Made by a program: the position numbers and the translations under genes
Notes under the pieces: model-generated
Told to the model about the DNA's origin: nothing
The model's database searches: none
Seen by the model: the letters and a program-made list of their open reading frames with translations, nothing else
Shown: in pieces, positions 11,392-60,766 of the stretch
How positions within the stretch are numbered: position 1 is the first letter of the stretch
Layout: each line of letters opens with the position of its first letter
Source: Rhodospirillaceae bacterium
GTDB taxonomy: Bacteria; Pseudomonadota; Gammaproteobacteria; Steroidobacterales; Rariloculaceae
Assembly: GCA_024638465.1 (NCBI GenBank)
Contig: JAHEKF010000007.1
Span: 7,729 to 71,728 of the forward strand
Reading direction: 5' to 3'
Length of the DNA stretch: 64,000 nucleotides

Positions 11392-11393
11392 AT

Positions 11394-32923: not shown

Positions 32924-32959
32924 CGTCCGAACCGGCGTGTGGTCGGCGGCCCGGAAAGC

Positions 32960-33215
32960 GCCGTCTCGAATGCCAGCTCAAACAACGCCCTGTCACGGTC
33001 AATCCGGTCGAGCCCGACGCCGCGGTGACCGACGAGGGAGGGTCCGGAGTGTCCGTCGAGCGTCGTAGACGAGGAGCGTGCCATGGACGGCAGTTGAGCG
33101 ACGAGGACACGATTCGAGGCGAGACACGGACGTCGAGCCGAGATTAAGTGAGACGGACACTCCGGACCCGACCATCAACTGATACGCCGACCGGCCCCTT
33201 GGGACTCCGCGTACC
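32960..33215 (+). repeat. Composite intergenic repeat (copy A): arm / 94-nt core / arm, filling the cysB-cysH convergent spacer
   Basis: The left arm (32986-33057) is the reverse complement of 45600-45668. The core (33057-33150) matches 22147-22240. ggtccggagtgtccgtc at 33041 and gacggacactccggacc at 33152 form an inverted repeat around the core. The ccggccccttgggactccgc box is also present at 45561. Confidence 0.85.
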
Positions 33216-33220
33216 GTCCG

Positions 33221-34000: not shown

Positions 34001-34232
34001 CGAGTGCGTGGTTCGTGTTCGGGATGCGATCCCTGCGCAGCGCGCTCCAGTCGGGAGGCATACCCTAGTGGACCGGACTGCCGCCGTGAACGGCCGAGTC
34101 GTCATAGCCGTATGCAGCGATGAAATAACTTAGAAGCTGACGGCAGACGCTAATGCCGCGACGAAATTACGTACGACCGTGAAGCTGTTGCCAGGTCCGT
34201 CGCGGTCTCGCGACCGGTTCCTTCGGACTCCG

Positions 34233-35597: not shown

Positions 35598-36653
35598 TCA
35601 GGCGTCGTCCGATCCGCACAGTGCGGGCCTGGGCTCGCCGGGACGCCCGGACAGACAGCATCCGCGAGGGCAGACGTCATGGCTCGGACCGAGTCTCCCC
35701 AGTGAGCGTTTTTCAGTACCCGGCTGCAGACGCTCCTGGATGAGTTCACGCACCATGCCGATGTAGGCGGGATGCGTGCCGACTGTGTTCGCGCGAACCA
35801 ATGCCAGGCCAACTTCGTTGGCGGTTTCCTGCGCTTCGACGTCGAGGTCGAGCACGACCTCCATGTGATCGCACACAAAGCCGATCGGCACCATGACCAT
35901 TGACTTCGAACCGCCTTCGCTCATGCCCCTGATCACGTCATTGATGTCGGGTTCGAGCCACGGCACGCCGTAAGACGCATTGTTACTCTGGTAACAGAGC
36001 GACCAGCTGTCGCGGCCCACTTCCCCGGCAACAAGGCGGCAGGCCTCCGCGAGTTGCTCGACGTAGTTCGCGTTTTTGGCCATCGGCACCGGCAGGCTAT
36101 GCGCCGTGAACATCAGCGGTGCATCGGCGCGCAATTCCTCCGGCAAATCGGCAAGCGCATCGACGACGCGATCGGCCATTGCCGAGATGAAGCCCGGATG
36201 GTTATAGCCGAGTCTCAGTTTGTCGATTGCTGGCGGGTTGTCGAGATCGGCACAGGCGTCGTAAAGATCCTCGCGGTATTTCCGGCAGCCGCTGTAAGAA
36301 CTGAACGTACTGGTCACGTGCGCGAGCGCACGCGAGATGCCCGCGCGCTGCATTTCGGCCAGGGTGTCGGCCAGCATCGGATGCCAGTTACGGTTACCCC
36401 AGTAAATCGGCAGATCGATATCGTGGGCCACGAGTTCGGCCTCGAGTGCGTCGATAAACTTGCGCGTTTCGCCGTTGATCGGGCTTACACCACCGAAGCG
36501 CTGATAGCGGCGCGCGATACCTTGCTTCGCCTCGGGCTTTACCGGCAGTCCTTTTAGCACGTTGTCGAGAAACGGCATGACGTCGTCCGGGCCCTCCGGT
36601 CCGCCGAAGGAGACGATCAGTAATGCGTCGTAAGGTCGCGTGTCGTCGCTCAT
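35598..36653 (-). CDS. hemH: Ferrochelatase, actinobacterial-like type with a Cys-rich C-terminal extension
   Basis: LLIVSFGGPEGPDDVMPFLDNV, FGGVSPING, YWGNRNWHP, FTAHSLP, VPWLEPD, PIGFVCDHMEVVLDLD. Also SGCRKY plus the C-terminal VCPRGCC...LC. Confidence 0.9.
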   Translation of the reverse strand: MSDDTRPYDALLIVSFGGPEGPDDVMPFLDNVLKGLPVKPEAKQGIARRYQRFGGVSPINGETRKFIDALEAELVAHDIDLPIYWGNRNWHPMLADTLAEMQRAGISRALAHVTSTFSSYSGCRKYREDLYDACADLDNPPAIDKLRLGYNHPGFISAMADRVVDALADLPEELRADAPLMFTAHSLPVPMAKNANYVEQLAEACRLVAGEVGRDSWSLCYQSNNASYGVPWLEPDINDVIRGMSEGGSKSMVMVPIGFVCDHMEVVLDLDVEAQETANEVGLALVRANTVGTHPAYIGMVRELIQERLQPGTEKRSLGRLGPSHDVCPRGCCLSGRPGEPRPALCGSDDA

Positions 36654-37364
36654 CTACAGTGCGCTCTGCCAGGCGACCTTGCCGACGAAGAAGGGGCCCA
36701 GGCTGTCGAGATATTGCGAGGTCTGCTCCGTCTTGCGCATCTCCTGCACGACGGCCGACAACGGAAACAGATTCGGTCCGAGCAGGCCGATGATGAAGTC
36801 ATTGTCGTGCTTGTCGAGACCGTGGCATGCAAGTCGCACGTCGGCTGCGAGACCGGCGAAGCCATAGCGTTTCGCCAGCGTGCCATGCTCGCCGAGAATC
36901 TGCCGTTGCCTGGCTTCGGGCAGTGTTTGAAACGACTTCGCCCTCTGCAACGGATACCAGACCGCCCATGGGAAGTCGGGATTCAGGGTCTTGAAGCGCG
37001 GTTTCTCGAATAGCGTCTCCTCGAGATCGGGTTCGTAGCCGATCGAGTAGGTTCGTCCGAGCATGTCGAATTCCGGCTTGTGCGTGAACGCGGAAAACGG
37101 CTCGGCGTTGAACGCGTCGCGCAGACTGCCAACGAAATGATCGGGATCCTCGGCAAGTGCGATAACGCCGATACCACGCGGGTCGTTGGCATCGACGTAG
37201 AGCGCTCCTTCGATGCCGGCGCCCGCGAGCGCCTGTGCTGCCGCGGCAGGTTCGGTACAGCCTGTAAATGCGGTGAACTTCATGAACAGGCGTCGATCGA
37301 GGGACGTCTGTTTGCCGTCAGCGGTGCCTTTCTCGCTGAGGTCGAGTGCCGGTACGTCGTTCAT
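36654..37364 (-). CDS. Chlorite-dismutase-family protein, probably coproheme decarboxylase (HemQ/ChdC)
   Basis: WYPLQR...LPEARQRQILGEHGTLAKRY...MRKTEQTSQYLDSLGPFFVGK aligns with the C-terminal half of HemQ-type proteins as I recall them. It is wedged between hemE and hemH with spacers of 0-1 nt. Confidence 0.7.
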   Translation of the reverse strand: MNDVPALDLSEKGTADGKQTSLDRRLFMKFTAFTGCTEPAAAAQALAGAGIEGALYVDANDPRGIGVIALAEDPDHFVGSLRDAFNAEPFSAFTHKPEFDMLGRTYSIGYEPDLEETLFEKPRFKTLNPDFPWAVWYPLQRAKSFQTLPEARQRQILGEHGTLAKRYGFAGLAADVRLACHGLDKHDNDFIIGLLGPNLFPLSAVVQEMRKTEQTSQYLDSLGPFFVGKVAWQSAL

Positions 37365-37365
37365 C

Positions 37366-38415
37366 TCACGCTCCCGTCCGGGCGGGCCGGCCGCTTGCCT
37401 GATCGCCCTCGTTGTGAACCGCTTCGATCATCGCCTCGACGCTCTCGATGGGCGTCTGCGGAAGGATGCCGTGCCCGAGATTAACGATGTGGCCAACCGG
37501 ATCGACGGTGTCGAGCAGGTTTCGCGTAGCGGTCCGGGTCGTGTCGTAACCGCCAAGCAGGATCGCCGGATCGATATTGCCCTGGACGGCCTTGCGGTCC
37601 TGATACTCGTTCTGTATGTCGCCGAGATCTACGCGCCAGTCGCAGGCCAGCACTTCGGCGGGCAGCATCGCGTATGACTCGACGAGATGCGGCGCGTTCT
37701 GCACGAACAGGATTCGCGGCACGCCCGCGTTACCGAGTGCTTCGAGTATCGTCTCGAGGTGCGGTCGAATCATGCGATCCCAGTCGGGCAGCGACAGGAC
37801 GCCGGCCCAGGAGTCGAAAATCTGTACCGCGTCGGCTCCCGCACGCGCCTGATTGATGAGGTAGTGCACCATGAGGTCGGCGAGTTTCGCGAGCAGAGCA
37901 TCGAGTGCCTCGGGTTGCGTTGCGGCGAACGCACGCAACGTCGGAAAGTCCTTCTTGCCGCGGCCTTCGACGAGGTAGGCCGCCAGCGTCCACGGCGCGC
38001 CGCAGAAACCGAGTAGCGCCGTTTCGTCGGGTAGTTCCGCGCGAACCTGTTTCAGCGCCGTCATCACTTCCGGCGCTATCTCGTCGGGATGACAGGAACG
38101 CAGCGCATCGACCCCGGCCTGGTCACGGATCGGGTTCTCGACGACGGGGCCGGGATCGAAGTCGAACTCGACACCGATAGCAGGTAACGGACTCATGATG
38201 TCGGCGAATACGATCGCGGCATCGAGAGGAAATCGCTTGATCGGCATGAGTGTGACTTCTGTTGACAGGTCCGCGGAGCCTGCAAGTTCCTTGAACGCAT
38301 ATTTTTTTCGCAACTCGCGGTATTCGGGCAGGTATCTTCCGGCCTGGCGCATGATCCACAAAGGACGGCGCGGCGTCGGCTCGCGTGCGATGGTCTGTAG
38401 CAGTAAGCGGTTCAT
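37366..38415 (-). CDS. hemE: Uroporphyrinogen decarboxylase
   Basis: PLWIMRQAGRYLPEYR signature. The ATG overlaps the response-regulator stop (ATGA). Confidence 0.9.
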   Translation of the reverse strand: MNRLLLQTIAREPTPRRPLWIMRQAGRYLPEYRELRKKYAFKELAGSADLSTEVTLMPIKRFPLDAAIVFADIMSPLPAIGVEFDFDPGPVVENPIRDQAGVDALRSCHPDEIAPEVMTALKQVRAELPDETALLGFCGAPWTLAAYLVEGRGKKDFPTLRAFAATQPEALDALLAKLADLMVHYLINQARAGADAVQIFDSWAGVLSLPDWDRMIRPHLETILEALGNAGVPRILFVQNAPHLVESYAMLPAEVLACDWRVDLGDIQNEYQDRKAVQGNIDPAILLGGYDTTRTATRNLLDTVDPVGHIVNLGHGILPQTPIESVEAMIEAVHNEGDQASGRPARTGA

Positions 38416-39122: not shown

Positions 39123-40202
39123 CTACGCCCCTCCCGGCCAGGACACCGTGACGGTCGCGCCGCGCCCGGGACCATCACTGCTTGCGGTGATCGTCGCATT
39201 GGACAGCTCGACGAGACGGCGCACGATGTACAACCCCAGGCCCGTACCGGGTGTCGACCGTCTGAGCTCGTCCCCGAGCCGGTAGAATTTTTCGAAGATG
39301 ATCGCGGCGTCTTCGGGCGGAAAGCCGAGACCATCGTCGTGGACCGCGAACTCGACGCGATCGCCCAACGCGCGAGCTTCGAGCCGGACGCTTTTTCCAT
39401 CGCCGGCGATACAGGCTTTGACGGCGTTGTCGAGCAGATTTCTCAATACCGTTTCGATCGTCGTGCGGTCGGCTTTTACGCTCAGGTTTTCCGGCACGTT
39501 CAGACTGATTTCGATATCGTAATGTGCGGCACGATCTTCGAGTTCCTTTACGCATGCTGTGGCGAGCGTCGCGAGATCAAGCGTTTCGGGCTCGAGCTCC
39601 ATGCGCCCTTCCTCGAGACGTGTCGTGTCGAGCAGGTTGTCTACCATCCGCAACAGCCGTTCACCGTCGTCGAGGATCCGCTGCCCGAGTCTCTGCGTAT
39701 CGGGATCGTTGTCGCGAACGAGCAGCGTCTCCGCGGCGAGACGGATGCTCGCGAGCGGACTCTTGAATTCGTGCGATACGGCGGCCAGGAAGTTTTGCTG
39801 ACGCGCGCGAAGATCCGCGTCGTGACGGATCGTACGCGTCAGAATCGTCATACCGACGAGCAGTACAACAAGAAAGAAGCCTCCCTCCCAGACGAGCCGG
39901 TTGATCCGGGAAGACGTCTGATCGTCGAGAACGGCCAGTACCGCATCGTTTACAAAGGCGGTCCCGAGCTCGGGCGAGATGTCGAGATGCGGCAGAAGGC
40001 CTTCGAGAGCATCCGGGTTATCGGAGTAGAACGCAGTAACAGCCGCTGCGTCGGCGTTATAGAGCGAGAGGAGCTGATCCTGTGTCGAACGTGTGAACGT
40101 AACGCTCTCGGAGATCCACCAAGCCACCTGTGCGAGTGACAGAATCAGTAGCGCGAGAAACCCGAGCTGCAACGCCTTGGTCGGGTCACGTCTGAGAACC
40201 AT
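39123..40202 (-). CDS. Sensor histidine kinase (two TM segments, HisKA, HATPase_c)
   Basis: H-box AVSHEFKSPLASI, N-box LRNLLDNAVKA, and G-boxes HDDGLGF / GTGLGL. ATG at 40202 (MVLRRDPTK) overlaps the hemL 3' end by 17 nt. Confidence 0.85.
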   Translation of the reverse strand: MVLRRDPTKALQLGFLALLILSLAQVAWWISESVTFTRSTQDQLLSLYNADAAAVTAFYSDNPDALEGLLPHLDISPELGTAFVNDAVLAVLDDQTSSRINRLVWEGGFFLVVLLVGMTILTRTIRHDADLRARQQNFLAAVSHEFKSPLASIRLAAETLLVRDNDPDTQRLGQRILDDGERLLRMVDNLLDTTRLEEGRMELEPETLDLATLATACVKELEDRAAHYDIEISLNVPENLSVKADRTTIETVLRNLLDNAVKACIAGDGKSVRLEARALGDRVEFAVHDDGLGFPPEDAAIIFEKFYRLGDELRRSTPGTGLGLYIVRRLVELSNATITASSDGPGRGATVTVSWPGGA

Positions 40203-41511
40203 GAGCCTCTCCCGTTTGACTGGCGATATCGTTGAGCACGTGCCCGAGTGTAGCGGCGAATTGGTCCAGGCTTTCGCGGCTGTGGGCCAGAGAGATGAAA
40301 CCGACTTCATAAGCCGACGGTGCAAGCGCGATGCCGCGCGCCAACAGGGCATGAAAGATACCGGCATAGGTGTCGCCGGTTTCGGCAGCTATTGCTTCGG
40401 CCGTGCGCGGCGCCGTCAGGGTGTGGAGTGCGATCCAGAATATCGAGCCGACTCGCGCGAGCACGGCGTCAACGGGCGCCGCCTCGAGAACCGGGTTCAG
40501 CAGTATCTCCAGGTACTGTCCGCGTGCCTCGAGCTGTTGCCAGCCTTCCTCCTCCTCGAGGACCTTGAGCGTCGTCAGACCGGCGGTCATCGCGACCGGG
40601 TTACCGGAAAGCGTGCCGGCCTGATAGACGCCGCCCTGCGGCGCGAGCTTGCGCATGATGTCTTTTGACGACGCGAACGCACCCACGGGCATGCCGCCGC
40701 CAATGACTTTGCCGAACGTCGCGATGTCCGGCGTAATGCCGTAATGGGCCGCTGCGCCACCGGCACCCAGACGGAACCCCGTGATCACTTCATCGAAAAT
40801 CAGGAGTGCGCCATGCTTCGAGCAAAGCTCGCGCAGGAGCTCGAGATAGTCGGGCCGCTGAATCAGCAGGCCGTTGTTAGCGGGAACCGGTTCTATGATG
40901 ACGGCTGCGATACGCGCGCCTTCCGTGCGAAACAGGTCATCGATCGCCTCGTCGTCGTCCAGCGGCAACACGCGTGTCAGATTGGTGAAATTCTCCGGCA
41001 CGCCGTCGGACGACGGTCGACCGAAAGTCGCGAGTCCCGACCCTGCGGCGACGAGTAGCGAGTCCGAGTGGCCGTGATAACAGCCGGAGAACTTGACGAT
41101 GAGATCGCGTCCCGTAGCGCCGCGCGCGAGCCGGATCGCGCTCATGACGGCTTCCGTGCCGGACGAGACGAAGCGCACCTGCTCGATGCCGGGGTAAGCT
41201 GCGACGACGCGTTCGGCGAGCTCGATCTCCGCGCGGCACGGGGCACCGAAAGAAGTGCCGCGTTTCACGGCTGCACTCACTGCCTTCACGACTTCCGGAT
41301 GAGCGTGGCCGAGAATCAGCGGTCCCCAGGAGCCGACGAAGTCGAGGTAGGTGCGGCCGTCCTCGTCGGTCACTTCCGCGCCGTTGGCCGAACGAATTAC
41401 GCGCGGCGTGCCGCCGACCGCACCGAACGCGCGCACCGGCGAGCTGACGCCACCCGGCAGAAGCGTCTGTGCTTTCGCGAACCAGTCTTCCGAACCTTTG
41501 GTCACAGCCAT
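40186..41511 (-). CDS. hemL: Glutamate-1-semialdehyde 2,1-aminomutase
   Basis: [27 protein letters not shown] and FDEVITGFR; the PLP-binding Lys lies in FGKVIGGG. Confidence 0.9.
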
Positions 41512-42506
41512 TTCCCTTGCAGCGCGTCACGCGCGTGATAGGTAATGATCTGGTCGGCGCCGGCGCGTGCGATCGCGTAGAGATTCTCGCGAACGACTCG
41601 CGCCTCGTCGATCCAGCCGTTCGCAGCTGCGGCCTTGACCATCGCGTACTCGCCGGAGACGTTGTATGCCGACAGCGGCAACGTCGTCTCTGCTCTTACG
41701 GCCTGGATAACATCGAGGTACGCAAGTGCGGGTTTGACCATCAGCATGTCTGCGCCTTCATCCTCGTCCAGCTCGGCTTCGCGAATCGCCTCGAGAACGT
41801 TACGCGCGTCCATCTGGTAGCTCTGCCGATCGCCTTGTTGCGGCGCCGAGTCGGCCGCATCGCGAAATGGCCCGTAGTACGCCGACGCGTACTTCACGGC
41901 ATAGGCGAGCAATGCGACATTGTCGAAACTTGCATCGTCCAGTCCGTCGCGGATAGCGGCGATGCGGCCGTCCATCATGTCGGACGGTGCGACGACGTCG
42001 GCGCCGGCTTCGGCGTGACTCAGCGCCGTTCTGACGATCGGCTCGAGCGACGGATCGTTGACGACTCGCCCGTCCTCGACGAGGCCGCAATGGCCGTGGT
42101 CGGTATAGGCACAGAGGCAGACGTCCGTCACGACGATGAGGTCGTCACCGAATTCCTGCTTCAGGCGCCGCACGGCTTTTTGAACTGCGCCTTGCTCGTC
42201 CCAGGCCAGCTCGCCGTCGGCTGTCTTCGTCGCATCGTCCTCCGGGTGGCCGAACAGCAGCGCCGCGCGGATTCCGAGCTCTAGATCGGCCCCGACTTCC
42301 GCCACGAGATTGTCGCGTCCCAGCTGAGCGAGGCCCGGCAACGATGGAATGGGCTCCGCCGCTTTTTCGGCCGGAAGCACGAAGCGCGGCACGACAAACT
42401 GCGACGCGGCGATATGCGTTTCCGCGACGAGATCGCGCATGGTCTGAGTCTGGCGCAGACGCCGCGGCCGCATACGCCCCGGTGTCGTCACTTTCAATTC
42501 GCGCAT
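41502..42506 (-). CDS. hemB: Porphobilinogen synthase (5-aminolevulinate dehydratase)
   Basis: [43 protein letters not shown]. Confidence 0.9.
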
Positions 42507-43228
42507 TGCATCGCCTCCATGAGTCCATCCAGACCGGGACGCTGCGCCTGTCCCGTCACTTCGAGTCCGGCGGCGCGCGCCGCCGCATTCGTGGCCGGAC
42601 CGATCGTAAAGATCGCCGCCGGCTTGTCCAGTTCGACCTGATTCGTCAGACCTTCGACGGCTGACGGGCTGGCAAGAAAGATCGTGTCCGCACCGAGGGC
42701 AGTGAGCGTGAATTTGGGCTCGACGGTCGCGGCCGGGATCGTGCGATAGACATCGAGCCGGACACAGTCAGCGCCGGCGGCATTCAGCGAGTCCTCGATT
42801 GTCGTGCCCGCATTCTCCGCGACCGCCAGCACGACATGTTTGCCGCCCGCGTCCAGTCGAACCTCGAGTGCCTGTGCGAGCGATGCCGCCGTGCCCGCTT
42901 CGCTGACGAGGTCGGCGCGACCGAAAGCGATGACGGCGGCATCGGCGGTCGCGGGACCGACGACTGCGATCCGGGTCTTCGCAGCTATCTCCGCAGAACT
43001 CAGCTCGGCAAACGCTGCAACGCCGCGTTTCGATGTGAACACGAGCCAGTCGGCATCAGGCAGCAGTTCCGCGATACGGTTGCGAAGCGCATCGGAGTCG
43101 ACCGGCACGCATCGAATACATGGCAGAACGACCGCACGGGCACCGGCCGCTTCAAGCCGGCTGGCCCACTGCGCGCTGTCATCGTCGCTGCGGGTGACGA
43201 GCACTATCTTTCCGCTTGCGGAAGTCAT
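42494..43228 (-). CDS. hemD: Uroporphyrinogen-III synthase
   Basis: 245 aa starting from [13 protein letters not shown], with the length and pattern of the HEM4 family. ATG 43228 overlaps the hemC stop (ATGA). The track extension to 43498 was rejected. Confidence 0.75.
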
Positions 43229-44139
43229 GACTCGGCGAGCGCTTCCCACGCGATATCGACCACCGCATGCGGATTCTTGTCGTGGGCTCTGGTGCCGATG
43301 AGTCGGCCGTCGCGTTCCAGCATCGCGACGAGCTGCAGCATGCCGTCGGGCGCCTCCGTGCAGTAGGCACCGAAGGCGACATCGCATCCTCCCTCGACGC
43401 GCATCAGCAATGCGCGTTCGACGGCAACACAGGTCTCCGTCGGGCCGTGGGCAATGATGCTCAGGGTGTCGACGATATGCCCATCCGCCGCGCGGCACTG
43501 CAGCGCAATTGCGCCTTGTGCCGGAGCAGGAATGAAGACTTCGGGGTCGAGTCGTACGACGATGTGGTCGCCAAGCCCGAGATCGGGGCGGTCGTCGAGC
43601 ATGGAGTCCCGCAGGCGATTGAGCCCCGCGGCGGCCAGTATCACGCCGTCGTAGCCATCGCCGACCTTACCGACACGTGTCGGCACGTTGCCGCGGAGTG
43701 GTTGAACGTCGACGTCGGCGCGCAGGTGTTTGAGCCAGGCCTGGCGGCGCGCGGACGAGGTACCGACTTTGGCGCCGTCCGCGATCGGCAGCGGGCCGGA
43801 CGCTTCGCTATGCGAGTCGCGCTGCATGACCAGCACATCGGCGGCGTCCTCGCGCCGCGTTATCGAGGCTAGCGTGAGCGCTTCCGGCGACTGGGTCGGC
43901 AGGTCCTTGAACGAGTGCACGGCGATGTCGGCAGTATCGTCCAACAGTGCCTGCTCGATCTCGCGAACGAACACTCCCGTCGCTCCGATAGCGCCGAACG
44001 TCGGTGCGTCGGATTTATCGCCGCTGGTTGTGACAATGACGAGTTCGGTCTCGTGGCCAAGTTCAGTGAGCTCGTTCGCAACGAACGTGGCCTGAGTTCT
44101 CGCGAGATGCGAACCGCGAGTGGCGATACGCAGTTTCAT
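43225..44139 (-). CDS. hemC: Hydroxymethylbilane synthase (porphobilinogen deaminase)
   Basis: LRIATRGS.LA..Q, VHS.KDLP and RGNV.TR motifs. Confidence 0.9.
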   Translation of the reverse strand: MKLRIATRGSHLARTQATFVANELTELGHETELVIVTTSGDKSDAPTFGAIGATGVFVREIEQALLDDTADIAVHSFKDLPTQSPEALTLASITRREDAADVLVMQRDSHSEASGPLPIADGAKVGTSSARRQAWLKHLRADVDVQPLRGNVPTRVGKVGDGYDGVILAAAGLNRLRDSMLDDRPDLGLGDHIVVRLDPEVFIPAPAQGAIALQCRAADGHIVDTLSIIAHGPTETCVAVERALLMRVEGGCDVAFGAYCTEAPDGMLQLVAMLERDGRLIGTRAHDKNPHAVVDIAWEALAES

Positions 44140-50250: not shown

Positions 50251-50748
50251 ATGGCTAACATTGCAACGGTACTCGGGAGTTTCATCGCCCTGGCGGGCTT
50301 AATGAGCTCAGGTCTGGCCACGGCCCAGAATGGCGAAATCGACGTCGATGACGCTGCCGCTGCAATCGACGATATCGATCGCGAGCCGGAGCGCTGTATT
50401 CGCGTTGGTGGCATCGACGAGACCCATATCGTTGACGATCAAACGATCCTCTTCTATATGCGCCAGGATGTGGTTTACCAGAATGTATTGCGTCGAGAGT
50501 GCCCGGGACTCAAGCGCGAAGACCGGTTTTCTTACGAGACCCTCGGCGGCAATCTGTGTCTTACGGATGCCGTTACTGTCCTGCGGACTTTCGCCGGCGG
50601 TCTGGAACCCGGACGGACCTGTGGTCTGGGTCCGTTCGTCAGAATCAGCGAGGAGGAAGCCGACCTCCTGCGTTACGGCGAGCGACCGCTGGTAAGCGAC
50701 GAGCCCGTAGAGGTACCTCAGGACGAAGAGGTACCTCAGGACGAATAG
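50251..50748 (+). CDS. Hypothetical secreted protein with a C-terminal tandem EVPQDE repeat
   Basis: Signal peptide ...SSGLATAQ with conserved-looking Cys residues (ERCIRV, RECPGL, NLCLTD, RTCGLG). An 18-nt unit is repeated twice at 50710-50745. GTG 50236 is an alternative start. Confidence 0.5.
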   Translation: MANIATVLGSFIALAGLMSSGLATAQNGEIDVDDAAAAIDDIDREPERCIRVGGIDETHIVDDQTILFYMRQDVVYQNVLRRECPGLKREDRFSYETLGGNLCLTDAVTVLRTFAGGLEPGRTCGLGPFVRISEEEADLLRYGERPLVSDEPVEVPQDEEVPQDE

Positions 50749-50866
50749 GACACCGACCAGACAACCCGGTAGGAAGAGAGCGCCACGGAGTTTGGCGCTT
50801 GATGATTCGGAGTTACGGATCGAGAGCACGGACAGCTCTTACGACGTCTGGCTGCAGGGATTGCGG

Positions 50867-51663: not shown

Positions 51664-52071
51664 ATGGATCGAAGAATTCTACTCGTAGCGATAGCGGCTC
51701 TGGCCGGTGCCACCGTAACCGCGCAGGCACACCACTCCTGGGGCGCAGTCTACGATGGCGGTCGCGAAGTCACTGAACTTGCCGCTAAAGTCGTAAGCCA
51801 GCACTCACGCCGCCCGCATGACAACGTCGCGATCATGATCACGAACGAAGCTGGCGAGACGGAAGCGTGGACGATGCAATGGCGTGGACCGCGCGGGCGC
51901 GACCGGGATCAGGAAGCGACGCAATACGACTTCAATGTCGGCGACGAAGTGCTGATCACGGGTCGTATGGCACGCAATGAAGACGACAAGCTCATACAGA
52001 TGACGACACTCGTGCGTCCGTCGGACGGCTGGACCATTACCGCGCGACAGGGTCGCGGCCGGCGGCGCTAG
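51664..52071 (+). CDS. Secreted 'module N'-like protein, divergent stand-alone copy
   Basis: AGGAGG ribosome-binding site. ...TVTAQA|HHSWG, RRPH, WTMQW, GDEVLITG. Confidence 0.6.
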   Translation: MDRRILLVAIAALAGATVTAQAHHSWGAVYDGGREVTELAAKVVSQHSRRPHDNVAIMITNEAGETEAWTMQWRGPRGRDRDQEATQYDFNVGDEVLITGRMARNEDDKLIQMTTLVRPSDGWTITARQGRGRRR

Positions 52072-52145: not shown

Positions 52146-52625
52146 CTAGATCTCGCCCGCGAGCGCCTGACCCTGTAATGAGTCGGGCGGGTATTCGGAC
52201 AGCTCGATGCGCACACCTTGCGGATCGAAGATGTTCGACAGGATCGAGTTCGTTCTGCCGCGACGCGCTTCAGTCGGGCTTGCGCCGCGTTCCTCGTACA
52301 TGGCTCTGACCGCGTCCATCCCTTCCACCTGAACGCCGAAGTGGCTCAGCCCCGGTGGCGTGTTGTCGTTCGCCCGCGTCAGTTCCACGAAGGTATTTTC
52401 GCTGACGCGAAGATATACCAGGCCGGGTTCGCCGGCGTCGTTCGTCACGCGGAAAGCCTCCTCGTAGCCCATCGTCTCCGTATAAAAGGCCAGCGATTCG
52501 TCCATGTCGGCAACAGCCACGCCAACGTGATTGAGCTGAATGACTCCGGGATTCATCTGGGCAACGGCCGCCTGGATAATGAGCGCCACTGCAGCGCCGC
52601 CAGCAAAAAGAGTTAAACCGCGCAT
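52146..52625 (-). CDS. Secreted VOC-family (glyoxalase/bleomycin-resistance/dioxygenase fold) protein
   Basis: LNHVGVAVADMDESLAFY...HFGVQVEGMD after a signal peptide. ATG 52625 chosen as the start. Confidence 0.75.
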   Translation of the reverse strand: MRGLTLFAGGAAVALIIQAAVAQMNPGVIQLNHVGVAVADMDESLAFYTETMGYEEAFRVTNDAGEPGLVYLRVSENTFVELTRANDNTPPGLSHFGVQVEGMDAVRAMYEERGASPTEARRGRTNSILSNIFDPQGVRIELSEYPPDSLQGQALAGEI

Positions 52626-52787
52626 TTGCGTACCTCCATTGATCGTTGTTATTTCAATGCGGGAGTCATCGAACATACGCGCTTCTCGAAGCCCACCGCA
52701 AGCGCGGCTTCAAAATCGCGGTAGTCCGAGGGATACTGCGCCTGTCTTTCGGCCAATCAGAACAATACGCAGGACGGGGAGTCGACC

Positions 52788-53813
52788 ATGTTGGCAAACA
52801 ATACACTTCGGAGATTGAGTTTTGCGGCGCTGGGTGCGCTGTTTCTATCGGGTATCCAGACCGCTGCGGCGCAAACGCGCGAGAGTGGGCCCTGGTGGCC
52901 CGGACCGCACGGCCCCGGCGACGAAGCGGGTGCATCGAACTACGTCACGCCGCTGAAAATCCTGACGGCGCTGCAGATCCCGGAGACCGGAAAAGTCTAC
53001 GAACTCGGCCATGTCTATGAGCAGGGCATTCCGCTTTACGGCGAGCGACCCTGGTACATGAGCATCACACCGCCACCGAGGCCGACGAGCGGCGAGGGCG
53101 GGATCGCGCTGAGCGAGTACTTCACCGGTTACATCGGGCAGTTCGGCACGCAGTTCGATGGGCTCGGGCATCAGGCCGGCCATGTCGAGATGGAAGACGG
53201 TTCGTTCGAGACCGTTTTCTACAACGGCTTCACCGCCGACGATCTGCTCGGACAGAATCGTGGTCTCAATGGGCTCGAGGCGCTCGGGATGGAGACGATG
53301 AAGCCGTTCATCACGCGTGGCGTCCTGATCGACGTCGCGGGCTACAAGGGCGGTACGTTGCCGGCGGCTTACGAAGTCACGATGGACGATGTGCGCGGCG
53401 CGCTCGCGCGGCAGGGAATGAGCGAGGACGATGTCGGCCAGGGCGACGCGGTCATGTTCAACTATGGCTGGGCCGTGAACTGGGGCAACCCGTCGAAGTA
53501 CAACGACAACCGCATCGGCGTGGGCGAGAACGAGGGTTCACCGGGAATCTATACGGAAGTGACAGCCTGGCTGGTCGAGAAAAAGATCGGTGTCGTGGGC
53601 GCGGACAGTTGCTGCGTCGAAGTCCGGCCGCGACCGGACATGGTCGGCAACGTACACCGGCAACTGTTCCTCGGCGAGGGCATTCCGATGGTCGAGAACA
53701 TGAATCTGCTCGAGCTGGCCGAGGACGGGGCCTACGAGGTGCTGTTCATCACGCTGCCGGAGCGGCTCAAGGGCGCGACCGGCTCGATGTTGCGACCGAT
53801 CGCGATCCGCTAG
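52788..53813 (+). CDS. Secreted cyclase-family protein (kynurenine-formamidase-like)
   Basis: Signal peptide. GTQFDGLGH (the HxGTHxDxPxH-like region is degenerate). Length and pattern fit the putative-cyclase family. Confidence 0.65.
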   Translation: MLANNTLRRLSFAALGALFLSGIQTAAAQTRESGPWWPGPHGPGDEAGASNYVTPLKILTALQIPETGKVYELGHVYEQGIPLYGERPWYMSITPPPRPTSGEGGIALSEYFTGYIGQFGTQFDGLGHQAGHVEMEDGSFETVFYNGFTADDLLGQNRGLNGLEALGMETMKPFITRGVLIDVAGYKGGTLPAAYEVTMDDVRGALARQGMSEDDVGQGDAVMFNYGWAVNWGNPSKYNDNRIGVGENEGSPGIYTEVTAWLVEKKIGVVGADSCCVEVRPRPDMVGNVHRQLFLGEGIPMVENMNLLELAEDGAYEVLFITLPERLKGATGSMLRPIAIR

Positions 53814-55648: not shown

Positions 55649-56827
55649 CTAGAAGATCATCCTGGACGCTTTCAGCAGCAATGTTCGGTTGACGCCGTCG
55701 GAGTGCAGAAACGCTGCGATGTCGCGCAGCAGCTTCTCGATCCCCGTTTCTTTCATGTAGCCCGAGCCGCCGTGAAGCTCCGAGGCCCAGGTCACGATCT
55801 TCCACGCGGCCTGCGAGGCGAATACCTTGGGAAACGCGGACAGCGCAGGATCCCAGCCGAGGTCGCGGTTGTCTGCCATCCAGGTAGCCTTGCGAACATA
55901 GGTTCGCGCGACATCGAGCAGCATGTGCATCTCGGCGAGCTGCGCAGTGATGCCGTCGTGCTCTATCAGCGGTTTTCCGCCCTGGACGCGGTTGCGGCAC
56001 CATTCCAGCGACTGCTCGTAGGCCGCCGTCGCCGCGCCGAGCACGCTCGCTGCCGCGTAGGCGTTGGAAGCCGGGAAGAAATCGATCAGCACCTGAAAAC
56101 CGTTGCCTGCTTCGCCGACGACATCCTCGTCCGGGATGAAACAATCCCTGAACATCAGTTCGGAGTTATTGGCGAGCCGCTCGCCCATCTTGTCGTGCAC
56201 TCGACCGATGCTGAATCCTTCCGTATCCCGGTCCAGCAGAAAGCAGGTCGAGCCCTCGTACAGTGACCGGCCTTTTTCCGTTTGCGCAAAAATCAGATAG
56301 ACGTTGGCGCGGTTGCCATTGGAGATGAAGTGCTTCATGCCGTTGATGCGCCAGCCGCCGTCGACTTTCTCGGCCTTCGTATGGAACGGCACGTCCTGAC
56401 GGATGAAATAGTTCGAGCCGGTTTCAGGCTCGGTAATGCCGATCGCGAGCACTCCGCGCGGGTCATCGCGGAAGATGGGAATGAATCTGTCCTGCTGCTG
56501 CTTCGTCAGCGCAGACTGCAGGATTTGCGCGAGCTTTAACGTCTGCGCCATGACGACGGATACGCCAATGTCCGCTTTCCCGAGCTCTTCTATCACCATC
56601 GCTGTCGTGACGGAATCGGCGCCAATGCCGCCCCATTCTTCCGACAGTGTCATGGTGCGCAGGCCTACTTCGTCCGCTTTCTCGACGATCTCCCAGGAGA
56701 AGCCCGCTTCGGGATCGCTGTTGGCGTCGAGCTCGGCGGCTACGGGCGCGACCACTTCCGCATTGAAGCGGCGCACGGTATCGAGGACGGCTTCCTGCAG
56801 CTCGTCGATGACGAAAGGTTCGGACAT
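55649..56827 (-). CDS. Acyl-CoA dehydrogenase
   Basis: 392 aa with ITEPETGS, the length of the family, and LHGGSGYM...LRD near the C-terminus. Confidence 0.9.
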   Translation of the reverse strand: MSEPFVIDELQEAVLDTVRRFNAEVVAPVAAELDANSDPEAGFSWEIVEKADEVGLRTMTLSEEWGGIGADSVTTAMVIEELGKADIGVSVVMAQTLKLAQILQSALTKQQQDRFIPIFRDDPRGVLAIGITEPETGSNYFIRQDVPFHTKAEKVDGGWRINGMKHFISNGNRANVYLIFAQTEKGRSLYEGSTCFLLDRDTEGFSIGRVHDKMGERLANNSELMFRDCFIPDEDVVGEAGNGFQVLIDFFPASNAYAAASVLGAATAAYEQSLEWCRNRVQGGKPLIEHDGITAQLAEMHMLLDVARTYVRKATWMADNRDLGWDPALSAFPKVFASQAAWKIVTWASELHGGSGYMKETGIEKLLRDIAAFLHSDGVNRTLLLKASRMIF

Positions 56828-56914
56828 CTGATTATTCTGAATATTGTCGCGGCTCGAAAGGTAGCATATCGTCTATCCAGGCAGCGAAGGACATTTCTCG
56901 ACGGAGGATCTGCG

Positions 56915-57889
56915 ATGAATAAGGGCGCGTCTCTGATATTGGCGGCGATTTTTCTGGGCCAGCCGGTTTTTGCGCACCACAGCGACGCGATTTACGACCG
57001 CGATACGATTGTTGCGCTCGAAGGCGTCGTCACAAGCTATTCGTGGCGCAACCCTCACGTCCTCATGGGTATCGCGGTGACGGACGAGTCCGGTGAGCAA
57101 ACGGAGTGGCTCGTCGAAACGGGCGCAACACCGATCATGGGTCGCAGCGGCTGGTCGGAGGATCTACTGAGACCGGGCGACACGGTAACCGTGCGTATAC
57201 ATCCCGAACGTTCGGGCCGCCATCACGCCATTCTCAATACGCTGCAAACGGCGGACGGAAATCTTTACAGGCAGGTCGAAGAAGAAGCCGAGGAAACTGT
57301 TGCTGCGACAAGCATTGCGGGCGTCTGGCGAGGTGCGGCGGACCGCAACATTTTCAGTATCCAGAATCAGATTCAGCTGACGCCGGCCGCCGAGGCCGCG
57401 CGTGAAGCCTGGCTGGTTAACGGCGACGACCCCGGTCGCGAATGTGACTCGCCGACGCCACCGCTCAGTATCGGCAGCCTGCTGTATCTCGCGGAGATAG
57501 AGATACTCGAAGACCGCGTTATTCTCCGCAACGAGTTTCTCGATTCGTACCGGACCGTCTGGATCGACGGCCGCGAACATCCCGTCGCTGGCGAATTCAC
57601 GCACATGGGTCATTCGACAGGCCGCTGGGAAGGCGACACGCTCGTCGTCGACACGCGCTATCTGGAAGCCAACCCGAAAGGCAACGGCTGGCGCGGCGTG
57701 CCATCGAGCCGCGAGAAGCACGTTGTCGAACGCTATTCGCTCATCAACGACGGCCGTCGCATGCGCGTCGATGTCTTCGTCGAGGATCCTGTCTACATCG
57801 CCGAGCCGTTCGAAGGCATCGTCGAAATGATCTATACGCCACACCTCGAGCTGTACAGCTACAACTGCGTACCGGGAACGTTCGAGTGA
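56915..57889 (+). CDS. Secreted fusion of module N and module C
   Basis: GGAGGA ribosome-binding site. ...QPVFA|HHSDA, EGVVTSYSWRNPH, WLVE, GWSED; then IAGVW, RECDSP, MGHSTGRWEGDTLVVDTRY, EDPVYIAEP, SYNCV. The stop overlaps the next gene's start (GTGA). Confidence 0.7.
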   Translation: MNKGASLILAAIFLGQPVFAHHSDAIYDRDTIVALEGVVTSYSWRNPHVLMGIAVTDESGEQTEWLVETGATPIMGRSGWSEDLLRPGDTVTVRIHPERSGRHHAILNTLQTADGNLYRQVEEEAEETVAATSIAGVWRGAADRNIFSIQNQIQLTPAAEAAREAWLVNGDDPGRECDSPTPPLSIGSLLYLAEIEILEDRVILRNEFLDSYRTVWIDGREHPVAGEFTHMGHSTGRWEGDTLVVDTRYLEANPKGNGWRGVPSSREKHVVERYSLINDGRRMRVDVFVEDPVYIAEPFEGIVEMIYTPHLELYSYNCVPGTFE

Positions 57890-59148
57890 ACGACGACCCT
57901 GCGCTCGAAGCGGTCGCCGGCAACGGCCTGTTGCACCGGCGACTGTTCTTGCGCGGCAGTGTTGCGGCGGGACTGACGTTCATGACGGCGAAGACCGCGA
58001 CTGCGGCGCCGCCCGATGTGCCGGCTTCGATGCTCGTTCCCGGAGCGGGCATGAGCGGCTACGGTTTGCGATCGCCTCATGAGGATCACGTCCAGCGAGG
58101 CTTCGGCTCCCTGCCCGGCACCGTCGGCACCGGTGCATCGCGCACGCCGCTCGAACACCTGGAAGGCATCATTACGCCGGGTGCTCTGCACTTCGAGCGC
58201 CATCACAACGGTATTCCGGACATCGATCCTGCGGGGCACCGGCTGCTGATACACGGCCTCGTCGAGCGGCCGCTGATCTTCGATCTCGATTCGCTGTCGC
58301 GCTACCCGCTGGTGTCGAAGCTGCAGTTCATCGAGTGCAGCGGAAACAGTGGCGCCAACAACGCAGCGGAGCCGCCGAATGTTTCGGCCGGCACGATCCA
58401 CGGACTCGTTTCGAACAGCCAATGGACCGGCGTGCCGCTGTCGATTTTGCTCGACGAAGCGGGCGTGCAAAGCGAGGGGCGATGGATCCTCGCCGAAGGC
58501 AGCGATGCGGCCGGCATGAGCCGTAGTGTGCCGATGACGAAAGCGCTCGACGACGCGATAGTCGCCATCTACCAGAACGGCGAGCATCTGCGTCCCGGTA
58601 ACGGTTATCCAATGCGGCTGTTCCTGCCGGGCTGGGAAGGCAACATGAGCGTCAAGTGGCTGCGGCGCATCGAAGTCACGGCCGGACCGACCATGACCAA
58701 GGACGAGACCTCCAAGTACTCCGACCTCATGCCGGACGGCAGGTCACTGCTGTTCACGTTCCCGATGGAGGTCAAATCGGTCATCACATCGCCGTCCGGA
58801 ACGAACGCGATGCAGGGGCCGGGGCTCTATCAGATTTCGGGTATCGCCTGGTCGGGCGCGGGCCGTGTAGGCCGCGTCGAAATCTCCGCCGACGATGGCG
58901 AAAGCTGGGCCGAAGCCGCGCTCGACGATCCGGTGCTGCCGATGTCGCTGACGCGATTCCGGCTGCCATGGCGCTGGGACGGCGGGCCCGCGGTGTTGCA
59001 GAGCCGCGCCGTTGACGAGACGGGTGCGGCGCAGCCGACTCGTACCGCCATGCTTGCCGGGCGCGGCAGCGCTTACCGCTACCACTATCACGCGATCCAG
59101 AGCTGGGCCGTGACCGAATCCGGCGAGGTCAGCAATGTCTACTCCTGA
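57886..59148 (+). CDS. Molybdopterin sulfite dehydrogenase/oxidase-family catalytic subunit (SorA/SoxC-like), Tat-exported
   Basis: Twin-arginine motif HRRLFLRGS. HFERHHNGIP, FIECSGN (Mo-ligand Cys context), YQNGE.LRP.NGYP.RL..PGWEG, and a dimerisation domain. Confidence 0.85.
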   Translation: MNDDPALEAVAGNGLLHRRLFLRGSVAAGLTFMTAKTATAAPPDVPASMLVPGAGMSGYGLRSPHEDHVQRGFGSLPGTVGTGASRTPLEHLEGIITPGALHFERHHNGIPDIDPAGHRLLIHGLVERPLIFDLDSLSRYPLVSKLQFIECSGNSGANNAAEPPNVSAGTIHGLVSNSQWTGVPLSILLDEAGVQSEGRWILAEGSDAAGMSRSVPMTKALDDAIVAIYQNGEHLRPGNGYPMRLFLPGWEGNMSVKWLRRIEVTAGPTMTKDETSKYSDLMPDGRSLLFTFPMEVKSVITSPSGTNAMQGPGLYQISGIAWSGAGRVGRVEISADDGESWAEAALDDPVLPMSLTRFRLPWRWDGGPAVLQSRAVDETGAAQPTRTAMLAGRGSAYRYHYHAIQSWAVTESGEVSNVYS

Positions 59149-59659
59149 GCGAATCGCTTTGCTTTGCGGCTTGTTCGCGGCCGCCATGGCGATAGCGCAG
59201 GAAGGCCCTAATCTCGGCATCGAGGCGACGGCGGAACAGGTCGCCGGCTGGTCCATCAACATTCAGCCCGACGGCACCGGACTTCCGCCGGGATCCGGCA
59301 CCGCGGCCGACGGCGCAGCGGTCTACGCCGCTCAATGCGTGGCCTGCCACGGCCAGGAAGGCGTCGGCGGTCCCAACGACCGGCTCGTTGGCGGTCACGG
59401 TACGATCGCGAGCGACTCGCCGGTCAGGACAGTCGGCAGTTACTGGCCCTACGCGACGACGGTATTCGATTACGTTCGCCGTTCGATGCCGATACTCAGG
59501 CCGCAGTCGCTAAGTGATGATGAAGTCTACGCGGTCACAGCCTATCTGCTGGAACTCAATGGCATTATCGCTGAGGGCGACGTCATGAATGCGGCGACGC
59601 TGCCGCAAGTAGAAATGCCCAACGCCGGCAATTTCGAATGGGCCTATACAGAGGATTGA
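59135..59659 (+). CDS. Mono-haem cytochrome c subunit (SorB/SoxD-like)
   Basis: Signal peptide, CVACHG haem-binding site, and a distal SMP motif. Overlaps sorA-like by 14 nt. Confidence 0.8.
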   Translation: MSTPERIALLCGLFAAAMAIAQEGPNLGIEATAEQVAGWSINIQPDGTGLPPGSGTAADGAAVYAAQCVACHGQEGVGGPNDRLVGGHGTIASDSPVRTVGSYWPYATTVFDYVRRSMPILRPQSLSDDEVYAVTAYLLELNGIIAEGDVMNAATLPQVEMPNAGNFEWAYTED

Positions 59660-59671
59660 GGTCGAGCCACG

Positions 59672-60766
59672 ATGATTGATCGTCGCAGCAATACCTGGTC
59701 ACTGATCGCCGTCGCGCTCATGCTCTGTGGCGGCAAGCTCGCGAATGCGCACCATGGTTTCGCCTTCGAGTTCGATATCGAACGGCAGGGGACCGTGGCC
59801 GGTACCGTCACCGAAGTTCGTTATACGAACCCGCATGTGGTCTATATGCTCGATGTCGAGACCGAGGCTGGCACGACCGAAGAGTGGCTGATTCGCACCC
59901 ACAACGTGCGAGTGATGACCCGGCTGGGCTGGCAAGCCGGCACGATCCAGGTCGGCGACCGTATCGAAGTGTCGGGTAGTCTCGGGCGGGGTGGAACAAG
60001 AAGAGTTTCGATGGACACCGTGGTGCTGGCGGACGGCACGGTGCGCGTCCCACGCGGCGGCGAATACTCCGATGCCTATACGACGGACGAAGTCAATGCG
60101 AGCGCGAACACTGATTACGGTGTGATCCCCAACGACTACGAGTACGACATCAGCGGCGCCTGGACAAACCGCTACAGGTTTCAGCTTACGGTCGACGACT
60201 TCGAGCCGAAACCGACGCCGTTTACGGAGGCGGGCCGGACCCTGTACGAGGCGACCGAAAACTGGCAGGACCCGGCCAAGAGCTGCAAGGAGAGCGGCCT
60301 GCCGCGCTGGTTCGGCGCGCCCACCAACATGGAGATCGTCGATGCCGGCACACACTATCTGATGGCCACCTCGGGCGGGGTGCGTCGCGTCTGGATGAAC
60401 GGCAGGCAGCCGCCGCCCAACATGACGCCGAGTCCGATGGGCTTCTCGGTCGGGCGTTGGGACGACAACCAGCTCATCATCGAAACCACGCGCCTGATGG
60501 CCGGGTGGCTCGACGGCTCCGGTTTGCCGATGTCGGGTGAGGGCACGCGCATCGTCGAGTCGTGGGTCGTCGCCGACGACGGCCTGACGATCGACCGCCA
60601 GATGACCATTCACGATCCCTACTACACGGAGCCGCTCGTTCGAACACGCGGCTCATCGCGTGAGGACGGCCTCGAGCTTGCCGAGGGCAGCCAGGGCTGC
60701 GACCCGACGAGCTACCTGCAGGATCTCCACCGCGAAGGCCGTATCGAGACGCTTTGGGCGGATTAA
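59672..60766 (+). CDS. Secreted fusion of module N and module C
   Basis: ...KLANA|HHGFA, AGTVTEVRYTNPH, WLIR, GWQAG, GDRIEVSG; then ISGAW, KSCKESG, MGFSVGRWDDNQLIIETTR, HDPYYTEP, QGCDP. Confidence 0.7.
   Translation: MIDRRSNTWSLIAVALMLCGGKLANAHHGFAFEFDIERQGTVAGTVTEVRYTNPHVVYMLDVETEAGTTEEWLIRTHNVRVMTRLGWQAGTIQVGDRIEVSGSLGRGGTRRVSMDTVVLADGTVRVPRGGEYSDAYTTDEVNASANTDYGVIPNDYEYDISGAWTNRYRFQLTVDDFEPKPTPFTEAGRTLYEATENWQDPAKSCKESGLPRWFGAPTNMEIVDAGTHYLMATSGGVRRVWMNGRQPPPNMTPSPMGFSVGRWDDNQLIIETTRLMAGWLDGSGLPMSGEGTRIVESWVVADDGLTIDRQMTIHDPYYTEPLVRTRGSSREDGLELAEGSQGCDPTSYLQDLHREGRIETLWAD

Follow-up and report, generated by a model that had tools for sequence, protein, structure and literature searches.

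We analysed a 64-kb stretch of contig JAHEKF010000007.1 (hereafter the window, meaning the whole stretch) and focused on a four-gene block at 56915-60766, in which soxC and soxD, encoding an exported molybdopterin dehydrogenase and its cytochrome c, are flanked by genes A and D. Both flanking genes encode exported proteins that combine a DUF6152 N-domain with a common C-domain (N+C proteins). Our results suggest that DUF6152 genes probably saturate both the region and the lineage of this soxCD pair, and that two of them are co-transcribed with it without being dedicated to it. The pairing of A and D with soxCD would result from the family being very dense in these genomes and turning over at a very high rate: DUF6152 genes appear to come and go, and in the lineage of the window soxCD would have become co-transcribed with two of them. 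The host lineage of such pairings seems to be uncultured Gammaproteobacteria, several matches being labelled Rariloculaceae. The pairing is best explained in this way; it is no evidence that the family is dedicated to sulfite oxidation and does not reveal what its function is. The soxCD pair itself is of a known kind, and the four-gene arrangement is a lineage-specific variant.

This interpretation is based on about 170 related loci which were compared with the window. For the family-centred set the family alignment was scanned against one reference genome per species, and 80 loci were collected together with flanks of at most 10 kb on either side. The SoxC-centred set comprised 80 metagenome loci (L085-L164) with the closest SoxC relatives (59-81% identity), in which family genes were sought within 6 kb and called by domain hidden Markov models (HMMs). 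Greedy clustering of open reading frames (ORFs) under-calls small genes in GC-rich loci; partner counts, for example of cupin or metallo-beta-lactamase (MBL) genes, were made by direct tblastn, and the recurrence of MBL, PepSY_TM and cytochrome b561 genes was counted over 84 family loci.

A reading of the DNA alone (the sequence-only reading) had tied the family to periplasmic sulfite or sulfur redox chemistry, which is unsupported by these surveys. A SoxC homolog was found within 10 kb in none of the 80 family-centred loci (0/80). Conversely, 8 of the 80 SoxC-centred loci carried a family gene within 6 kb of soxCD (L090, L101, L106, L110, L114, L116, L130, L138). The family-centred loci contained 207 family ORFs in 78 loci and thus represent arrays. 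Their non-family neighbours were heterogeneous and each was present in at most 10 loci, led by exported MBL-fold proteins (10/84) and followed by GFO/IDH/MocA (9), TctA (8), TctC (7), TonB-dependent receptors (7), sulfatases (6) and pyrroloquinoline quinone (PQQ) dehydrogenases (5).

Moreover, family genes were not concentrated next to soxCD. Per 100 kb we counted 3.1 family domains at 0-0.5 kb from soxCD, 8.0 at 0.5-2 kb, 4.3 at 2-4 kb and 4.0 at 4-6 kb. Six loci had family genes within 2 kb and six further out, in line with uniform placement (binomial p=0.65). In family-rich genomes about 10 family domains per 100 kb are still found at a distance of 8-10 kb from a family gene, and by this standard the values near soxCD do not exceed the background. 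A survey of soxCD loci for flanking family genes had been put forward by the sequence-only reading itself as a refutation test, and it returned no enrichment. In five of the eight soxCD loci with family genes these formed a split C/N pair that lies upstream and is encoded on the opposite strand. L090 and L106 belong to one lineage and L114 and L116 to another single lineage; L111 and L112 share the nth-rnf synteny of the latter, yet lack family genes.

We also considered a DUF6152 subfamily specific for soxCD. This was rejected, as the best matches of the soxCD-adjacent copies were mostly paralogs from loci without soxCD. The commonest partner of the orphan soxCD clade was a small upstream cupin (Cupin_7/DUF4437), present in 13 of the 80 loci as well as in L167 and L168; the window has no Cupin_7/DUF4437 homolog. 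In L085 and L086 a 148-aa ORF with a signal peptide and the motif AHHS follows soxD. As a hidden DUF6152 gene it was dismissed, being missed by the N-domain HMM, reaching 1.5% probability in hhalign and matching nothing in NCBIfam.

The close relatives of the window point in the same direction. In the window the order is a divergent acyl-CoA dehydrogenase gene, A, soxC, soxD, D and a gene for a major facilitator superfamily (MFS) transporter. L001 and L002 (SoxC 91% identical) carry a shikimate dehydrogenase gene followed by A, soxC, soxD, D, a paralog X and the MFS gene, X being 60-62% identical to gene A and absent from the window. L165, whose SoxC is likewise 91% identical, shows the upstream synteny of the window including the divergent acyl-CoA dehydrogenase gene, followed by soxC, soxD, D and X; gene A is therefore absent at 91% SoxC identity. 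At 82% (L166) soxC and soxD are followed by genes for a cytochrome c and a PQQ dehydrogenase, and at 77% (L167, L168) the order is cupin, soxC, soxD with no adjacent family gene. No family gene was detected in L085, L086 and L087 (75-81%) either. Nevertheless, of the four loci L165-L168 three still have scattered family genes at a distance of 2.6-5 kb, which indicates that the family is dense in this lineage. Besides, orthologs of gene D occur without soxCD: in L169 (74% identical) in a similar neighbourhood with cytochrome b, an N-only copy, a cyclase and Bax1-I, in L171 (62%) next to the genes of a SulP transporter and a PQQ dehydrogenase, and in L172 (59%) beside ExbBD-TonB genes.

Several points weigh against our interpretation. 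The tight junctions within the block (4-nt overlap, 12-nt gap) imply co-expression, which is often a sign of shared function. Gene D is the only family copy that is kept beside soxD in all relatives with at least 90% SoxC identity (L001, L002, L165). When spurious ORFs are excluded, the family (8/80) is among the most frequent neighbours of soxCD, behind only the cupin (13/80), and in L116 and L110 copies are located on both sides of soxCD. The chance expectation for family adjacency is only roughly bounded. Finally, an N+C gene on the same strand follows soxD after 40 bp in a distant SoxC clade. This locus, L170, carries soxC, soxD, an N+C gene of 350 aa and an MBL gene on one strand. Its SoxC is only 47.5% identical to that of the window and its N+C gene is closest to the window paralog at 11394-12422 (35%), hence a different paralog; therefore this is an independent recurrence of the arrangement. 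The ortholog of gene D in L170 (68%) is found 2.2 kb away, beyond an insertion sequence (IS) transposase and a LysE gene. The IS-type transposase (5062-6222, rve integrase domain) separates soxC from the D ortholog, which would fit rearrangements around loci with soxCD and family genes.

Most of these points would fit an alternative in which the orphan SoxCD of these lineages has a true accessory partner in gene D, and perhaps in gene A as well, acting either as a periplasmic carrier or adaptor replacing the missing SoxYZ or as an electron or metal donor to the enzyme. The translational coupling, the occurrence of family genes at most 2 kb from soxCD in L090/L106, L114/L116, L110 and L138, the lack of SoxYZ around the orphan SoxCD and a conserved cysteine near the C-terminus of the C-domain speak for such a role as well. 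We consider it possible but unlikely. Most soxCD loci of the clade, including those of the 75-82% SoxC relatives, have no family gene, gene A is dispensable in L165, and gene D has the soxCD-free orthologs described above. The copies next to soxCD come from different subfamilies and in many cases lie on the opposite strand, and neither a proximity enrichment nor a soxC gene in the 80 family loci was observed. The C-terminal cysteine is paired, which suggests a disulfide, and a carrier motif of the GGCGG type is missing. We therefore prefer the reading of a family that is dense in this lineage and not dedicated to soxCD.

The window itself illustrates this density, as it holds at least seven further family copies beyond A and D, giving three family loci in 64 kb (Table 1). 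The largest is an upstream array of C-only, N-only and N+C genes which the sequence-only reading had placed directly downstream of a persulfide dioxygenase gene and counted as a second, independent locus pointing to sulfur chemistry. We found that a gene for an exported MBL-fold protein intervenes. Because the dioxygenase is cytoplasmic and separated from the array by this gene, the argument of two independent loci is weak. The product of the MBL-rhodanese gene is a plausible cytoplasmic persulfide dioxygenase-rhodanese fusion, as judged from its likely N-terminus MIFRQLFD, typical of ETHE1-type persulfide dioxygenases, and from the lack of a signal peptide. It is the exported MBL type and not the dioxygenase that recurs beside family genes.

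This recurrence led to another explanation, according to which the family acts together with periplasmic SoxH-like MBL hydrolases, and sometimes with sulfatases, the substrate being an organosulfur or another hydrophobic compound. SoxCD would then be nearby only when sulfite is the product, and the link to sulfur would be indirect. Exported MBL-fold proteins are the commonest family neighbour, MBL genes adjoin or lie inside arrays in L017, L023, L028, L032, L056, L063 and the window, and the one-strand cluster of L170 ends in an MBL gene. The window MBL protein is closest to SoxH-related models (TIGR04559, 97 bits), sulfatases are found in 6 of the 84 family loci, SoxH-like MBL genes in 4 of the 80 soxCD loci, and the predicted calycin-like barrel of the C-domain may suggest binding of a small hydrophobic ligand. 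Nevertheless, we regard this explanation as quite improbable. The MBL proteins are mutually only 20-44% identical and far below the cutoff of 280 of the SoxH-related model, MBL-fold genes are frequent in genomes at large, no MBL gene lies within 10 kb in about 88% of the family loci, and no substrate is indicated.

PepSY_TM and cytochrome b561-type genes adjoin family genes in the window and in L165/L169. As recurrent family partners both were rejected, since they occurred in only 1/84 and 0/84 family loci, respectively. A divergent N-only copy of the window (51664-52071) lies beside glyoxalase and cyclase genes (52146-53813). L165 and L169 show these three genes in synteny and have a cytochrome b561-type gene (Ni_hydr_CYTB) just upstream of them; the window ORF at 50308-50829, the counterpart of that gene, showed no detectable similarity to it.

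The organisation of the block had been described correctly by the sequence-only reading. The ORF listing gave four co-oriented frames on the plus strand, and the claimed GTGA overlap, 14-nt overlap and 12-nt gap were all borne out by reading the sequence. The GTG start of soxC at 57886 overlaps the TGA of gene A (57887-57889), the ATG of soxD at 59135 lies 14 nt inside soxC (TGA 59146-59148) and is preceded by GAGG, and the TGA of soxD (59657-59659) is separated by 12 nt from the ATG of gene D at 59672. Each junction of the block has a Shine-Dalgarno sequence, and that of gene A is situated within an 87-bp region common to gene A and the divergent acyl-CoA dehydrogenase gene. Terminator-like hairpins within the block were no commoner than in shuffled sequence. 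A simple scan revealed no sigma-70 consensus promoter, which is uninformative. The block is bordered by the divergent acyl-CoA dehydrogenase gene upstream and by a convergent gene for an aromatic-acid-type MFS transporter downstream. A single transcript of the four genes is the natural reading of this layout, and the proposal of one operon is upheld by the overlapping or tight junctions with their Shine-Dalgarno sequences. The bracketing of the enzyme pair by two N+C paralogs was confirmed too, as A and D both consist of the DUF6152 domain and the common C-domain.

Due to the G+C content of about 60-64% the region has many long spurious ORFs in other frames, and the flanking ORFs might have been chance or mis-called frames, leaving an operon of just soxCD. 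This is refuted by the homology and structure results, and we give it next to no credence. A and D score well above the PF19649 cutoff and have 1,395 and 658 homolog matches in the protein database, respectively, hundreds to thousands of them full-length. Besides, both flanking ORFs show invariant residues, signal peptides and a confident fold prediction.

Table 1. Features of the four-gene block, of the other family loci of the window and of two related loci. Positions refer to the window unless a locus is named.
Feature	Position	Strand	Remarks
Acyl-CoA dehydrogenase gene	55649-56827	-	divergent from gene A
Shine-Dalgarno GGAGG of gene A	56903-56907	+	read from sequence; 7 nt before ATG
Gene A, exported DUF6152 N+C protein, 324 aa	56915-57889	+	PF19649, invariant columns, AF2, Foldseek
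Gene A, mature N-terminus His21-His22	56975-56980	+	signal peptide residues 1-20
Gene A, N-P-H motif	57050-57058	+	N-domain (OB-fold), about residues 23-119
Gene A, G-x-W	57320-57328	+	C-domain (calycin-like), about residues 128-322
Gene A, Cys177	57443-57445	+	C-domain
Gene A, Cys318	57866-57868	+	C-domain
soxC, Tat-exported molybdopterin sulfite/sulfane dehydrogenase catalytic subunit, 420 aa	57886-59148	+	TIGR04555, PF00174 and PF03404, 2XTS_A
soxC, twin-arginine motif RRLFL	57937-57951	+
soxC, Mo-ligand cysteine motif ECSGN	58333-58347	+
soxD-like gene, monohaem cytochrome c, Sec signal peptide, 174 aa	59135-59659	+	2XTS_B, PF13442 and PF00034
soxD, haem motif CVACH	59336-59350	+
soxD, RSMP	59480-59491	+
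Gene D, exported DUF6152 N+C protein, 364 aa	59672-60766	+	PF19649; conserved in L001, L002, L165
Gene D, mature N-terminus His27-His28	59750-59755	+	signal peptide residues 1-26
Gene D, N-P-H motif	59828-59836	+
Gene D, G-x-W	60155-60163	+
Gene D, Cys205	60284-60286	+
Gene D, Cys343	60698-60700	+
MBL-rhodanese fusion gene	5506-6630		likely start about 5557; below cutoffs of closest models Blh and GloB
Upstream array	6645-13179		order: exported MBL-fold gene, C-only, N-only, C-only, N-only, N+C, N+C, PepSY_TM
Exported MBL-fold gene	6645-7565		closest to SoxH-related models (TIGR04559), 97 bits, cutoff 280
C-only family genes	7569-8606; 8991-9809
N-only family genes	8622-8981; 9769-10275; 51664-52071
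N+C family genes	10276-11367; 11394-12422
PepSY_TM membrane protein	11977-13179 (ORF)		true start after 12422
Cupin, about 145 aa (L167)	7506-7949		just upstream of soxC; Cupin_7/DUF4437 match
Cupin, about 145 aa (L168)	7507-7944		just upstream of soxC; Cupin_7/DUF4437 match

The central pair had been proposed to encode an exported molybdoenzyme of the SorAB type with a c-type cytochrome partner. Export by the twin-arginine translocation (Tat) pathway and the cytochrome partner were confirmed by the twin-arginine motif, the haem motif CVACH and the matches to 2XTS, the structure of Paracoccus SoxCD. The label SorAB-like did not hold. The soxC product reached 546.4 bits with the NCBIfam model TIGR04555 (SoxC, cutoff 420) and covered its full length (1-408), and the scores for the SorA model NF052245 (142.5 bits, cutoff 600) and the SorT model (113, cutoff 570) stayed below the thresholds. 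Its best solved match was 2XTS_A (E 1.6e-102), compared with E 3.6e-30 for 2BLF_A of SorAB, and that of the cytochrome was SoxD (2XTS_B, E 1.6e-37), with no SorB chain among the structure matches of the cytochrome. Since TIGR04555 was passed, the SorA and SorT models failed and 2XTS was best for both subunits, the enzyme is SoxCD-like and not SorAB-like. The soxC product further contains PF00174 (151.8 bits) and PF03404 (51.4 bits), and the Cys of its ECSGN motif aligns to the Cys of ECAAN in 2XTS_A. Its N-terminus, which is conserved in homologs, includes LLHRRLFLRGS and then a hydrophobic stretch with ATAA at its end. The soxD product matches PF13442 and PF00034, and soxD directly follows soxC in 76 of the 80 related loci, the other four loci ending just after soxC.

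No soxX, soxY, soxZ, soxA or soxB was present among the Pfam-annotated genes of the window, and a sox cluster (soxYZ, soxAB, soxX) did not recur beside soxCD in about 85 related loci including the 80 soxC loci. As judged from this gene content, the central pair is an orphan soxCD module. It would most likely function as a self-contained periplasmic sulfite:cytochrome c oxidoreductase, because soxYZ, soxAB and soxX are missing nearby. Such an enzyme may oxidise free periplasmic sulfite originating from a cytoplasmic persulfide dioxygenase or from the breakdown of organosulfur compounds and pass the electrons to the respiratory chain. The proposed use of free sulfite is based on an NCBI naming rule and on MBL-rhodanese (persulfide-dioxygenase-like) genes near soxCD in 4 of the 80 loci (L119, L134, L156, L164). 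A further point to be set against our reading is that the substrate of Paracoccus SoxCD is SoxY-bound sulfane and not free sulfite, so that free sulfite would be no more than a putative substrate of an orphan SoxCD. SoxCD-type enzymes are usually treated as part of a complete Sox system. SoxCD is named sulfane dehydrogenase in PMC9959259, and a literature search on soxCD returned only papers that, by title and abstract, deal with the complete Sox system. The orphan soxCD clade described here is a widespread self-contained two-gene module in soil and marine metagenomes.

Genes A and D are paralogs with 27% identity. Their N-domains matched PF19649 with 90.7 and 76.8 bits, respectively (Pfam cutoff 27 bits), and for the C-domain of about 190 aa no Pfam or NCBIfam model was matched. 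The C-domain is also encoded by separate exported C-only genes, and in split arrangements N and C genes each have their own signal peptide. In the alignment the starting His-His, the N-P-H motif, one Trp and one Arg are invariant in the N-domain, and a G-x-W on the first strand (G136-x-W138 in gene A) and two cysteines are invariant in the C-domain. The His-His pair directly follows an AxA-type cleavage site in 156 of 160 members of the fetched loci and in all 145 diverse representatives, where residue -1 is A, G or S, residue -3 is usually A, V or S, and a hydrophobic stretch comes before the site; the first His is found at median position 24 in the 145 representatives. With His-His placed directly after the signal-peptidase site, the mature protein should begin with histidine, and this residue hints at a metal site on the N-domain. 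Exactly two cysteines were counted in the C region of 134 of 141 representatives. One of them lies 3-16 residues from the C-terminus within Y-x-C-x-P, and as it is always accompanied by the second invariant cysteine, the pair probably forms a disulfide.

The AlphaFold2 (AF2) model of the full-length protein (pLDDT 84, pTM 0.73) consists of an N-terminal oligonucleotide/oligosaccharide-binding (OB) fold and a second beta-barrel, and the N-only model reached a pLDDT of 90.9; both models still include the signal peptide. In Foldseek the N-domain matched generic OB-folds only (PriB, SSB, the anticodon-binding domain of LysRS). The C-domain gave weak matches to FABP-type barrels, namely SAHS and CRABP-II (E 7e-4 to 1e-3, TM 0.5-0.62 on the target), with 10-13% identity and a root-mean-square deviation of 6-8 A. 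The profile of the N+C alignment found nothing meaningful among PDB sequences (best E 0.74). The only informative name among the close homologs was 'DUF6152 family protein', the others being 'hypothetical protein'. The family profile matched 24,459 clusters (50% identity) with E<=1e-3, a number that drops to 11,227 with E<=1e-10. Hosts of the family include Acidobacteriota as well as uncultured Gammaproteobacteria, of which several carry the label Candidatus Rariloculaceae, besides other groups. A literature search found no paper mentioning DUF6152, and a search for Rariloculaceae yielded nothing relevant.

Taken together with the heterogeneous neighbourhoods, these features would fit best with general periplasmic metal-binding or small-ligand-binding proteins, whose individual paralogs may be co-expressed with a wide variety of periplasmic enzymes and uptake systems. 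A more far-reaching idea is that N+C proteins and split pairs constitute a new class of modular periplasmic adaptors, which we judge to be doubtful. Such proteins might unite an OB-fold bearing an N-terminal-His metal site with a calycin-like ligand barrel, and their paralogs might deliver substrate, metal or electrons to particular enzymes; we hold this delivery to be rather improbable. That gene D, and perhaps gene A, would serve the orphan SoxCD in place of SoxYZ as such adaptors likewise has a small chance of being correct. A family of exported binding proteins that is not dedicated to soxCD remains the reading we favour. It follows that the sulfite-oxidation clue from a single operon should not be generalised to the family, which saves effort on a sulfur-centred hypothesis. 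DUF6152 is among the larger exported families without known function and is greatly expanded in uncultured marine Gammaproteobacteria and Acidobacteriota. It now has testable features: the mature His-His, the invariant N-P-H, the G-x-W barrel with its cysteine pair and the frequent pairing with exported MBL-fold proteins.

Other genes of the window were noted as well. A sulfate-assimilation cluster at 29238-34105 encodes a CysK-like pyridoxal phosphate enzyme, the sirohaem synthase CysG, a LysR regulator and a 3'-phosphoadenosine 5'-phosphosulfate reductase, and the window thus holds assimilatory sulfur genes in addition to the oxidative soxCD and persulfide dioxygenase genes. Contiguous genes on the minus strand at 34233-38415 comprise a hemY-like gene (protoporphyrinogen/coproporphyrinogen oxidase family), a ferrochelatase gene, a gene of the chlorite dismutase family (HemQ-like) and hemE. 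This gene set suggests haem synthesis by the coproporphyrin-dependent pathway, which in a gammaproteobacterium would be unusual; genes resembling HemL, HemB and HemD are located nearby at 40186-43498. Directly after the upstream array, the region 13217-17203 carries genes for a trehalose-phosphatase, a GH15 glucoamylase/trehalase-like protein and a trehalose-6-phosphate synthase (GT20). Farther along, 18179-19954 encodes a response regulator that contains GGDEF and EAL domains. Genes for a sodium:solute symporter and an alginate-export-type porin (20643-23495) precede two paralogous DUF5916 genes of about 757 aa, one of them with a CBM9 domain, on either side of an AhpC/TSA peroxiredoxin gene (23691-29135).

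Among known systems, SoxCD of Paracoccus pantotrophus (2XTS) shares the order soxC-soxD with the central pair, and the Tat signal is conserved between the two along with the Mo-ligand cysteine, the CxxCH haem motif and the RSMP segment. In contrast to Paracoccus, soxYZ, soxAB and soxX are missing from the window and do not recur as neighbours in the related loci, and the SoxD of the window is a short monohaem protein of 174 aa, whereas Paracoccus SoxD is a longer dihaem protein. In view of these differences the substrate here could be free sulfite instead of SoxY-bound sulfane. SorAB of Starkeya novella (2BLF), a periplasmic enzyme with a cytochrome c partner, is likewise a member of the sulfite-oxidase superfamily. 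Its substrate is free sulfite, whose oxidation would be the likely physiological role of the window enzyme too; however, the similarity of SorAB to the window enzyme is much weaker than that of SoxCD, and the window cytochrome matches SoxD. SoxYZ is the periplasmic partner that presents the substrate to SoxCD, and DUF6152 proteins resemble it in the conserved cysteine near the C-terminus. Sequence and fold are not similar, though, the DUF6152 C-terminus has no GGCGG motif and its cysteine is always paired.

For the family itself, Pfam DUF6152 (PF19649) recognises the N-domains of A, D and the N-only paralogs above the gathering cutoff, and the model spans only this domain of about 100 aa and has no function recorded. 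The best structural matches of the C-domain were calycin barrels (FABP/CRABP/lipocalin), although these matches are too weak to assign it to the calycins, and its first strand bears the invariant G-x-W, a motif which is a calycin hallmark. It differs from them in being larger (about 190 versus 137 aa), exported and equipped with a cysteine pair. Histidine-brace copper proteins such as CopC, YcnI, PmoB and the lytic polysaccharide monooxygenases have a beta-sandwich (Ig- or cupredoxin-like), whereas the DUF6152 model shows an OB-fold, and our literature search found no paper on periplasmic proteins that mentions an OB-fold together with a histidine brace. Nevertheless, DUF6152 proteins resemble them in an invariant His as the predicted first mature residue and in a second invariant His within the N-P-H motif.

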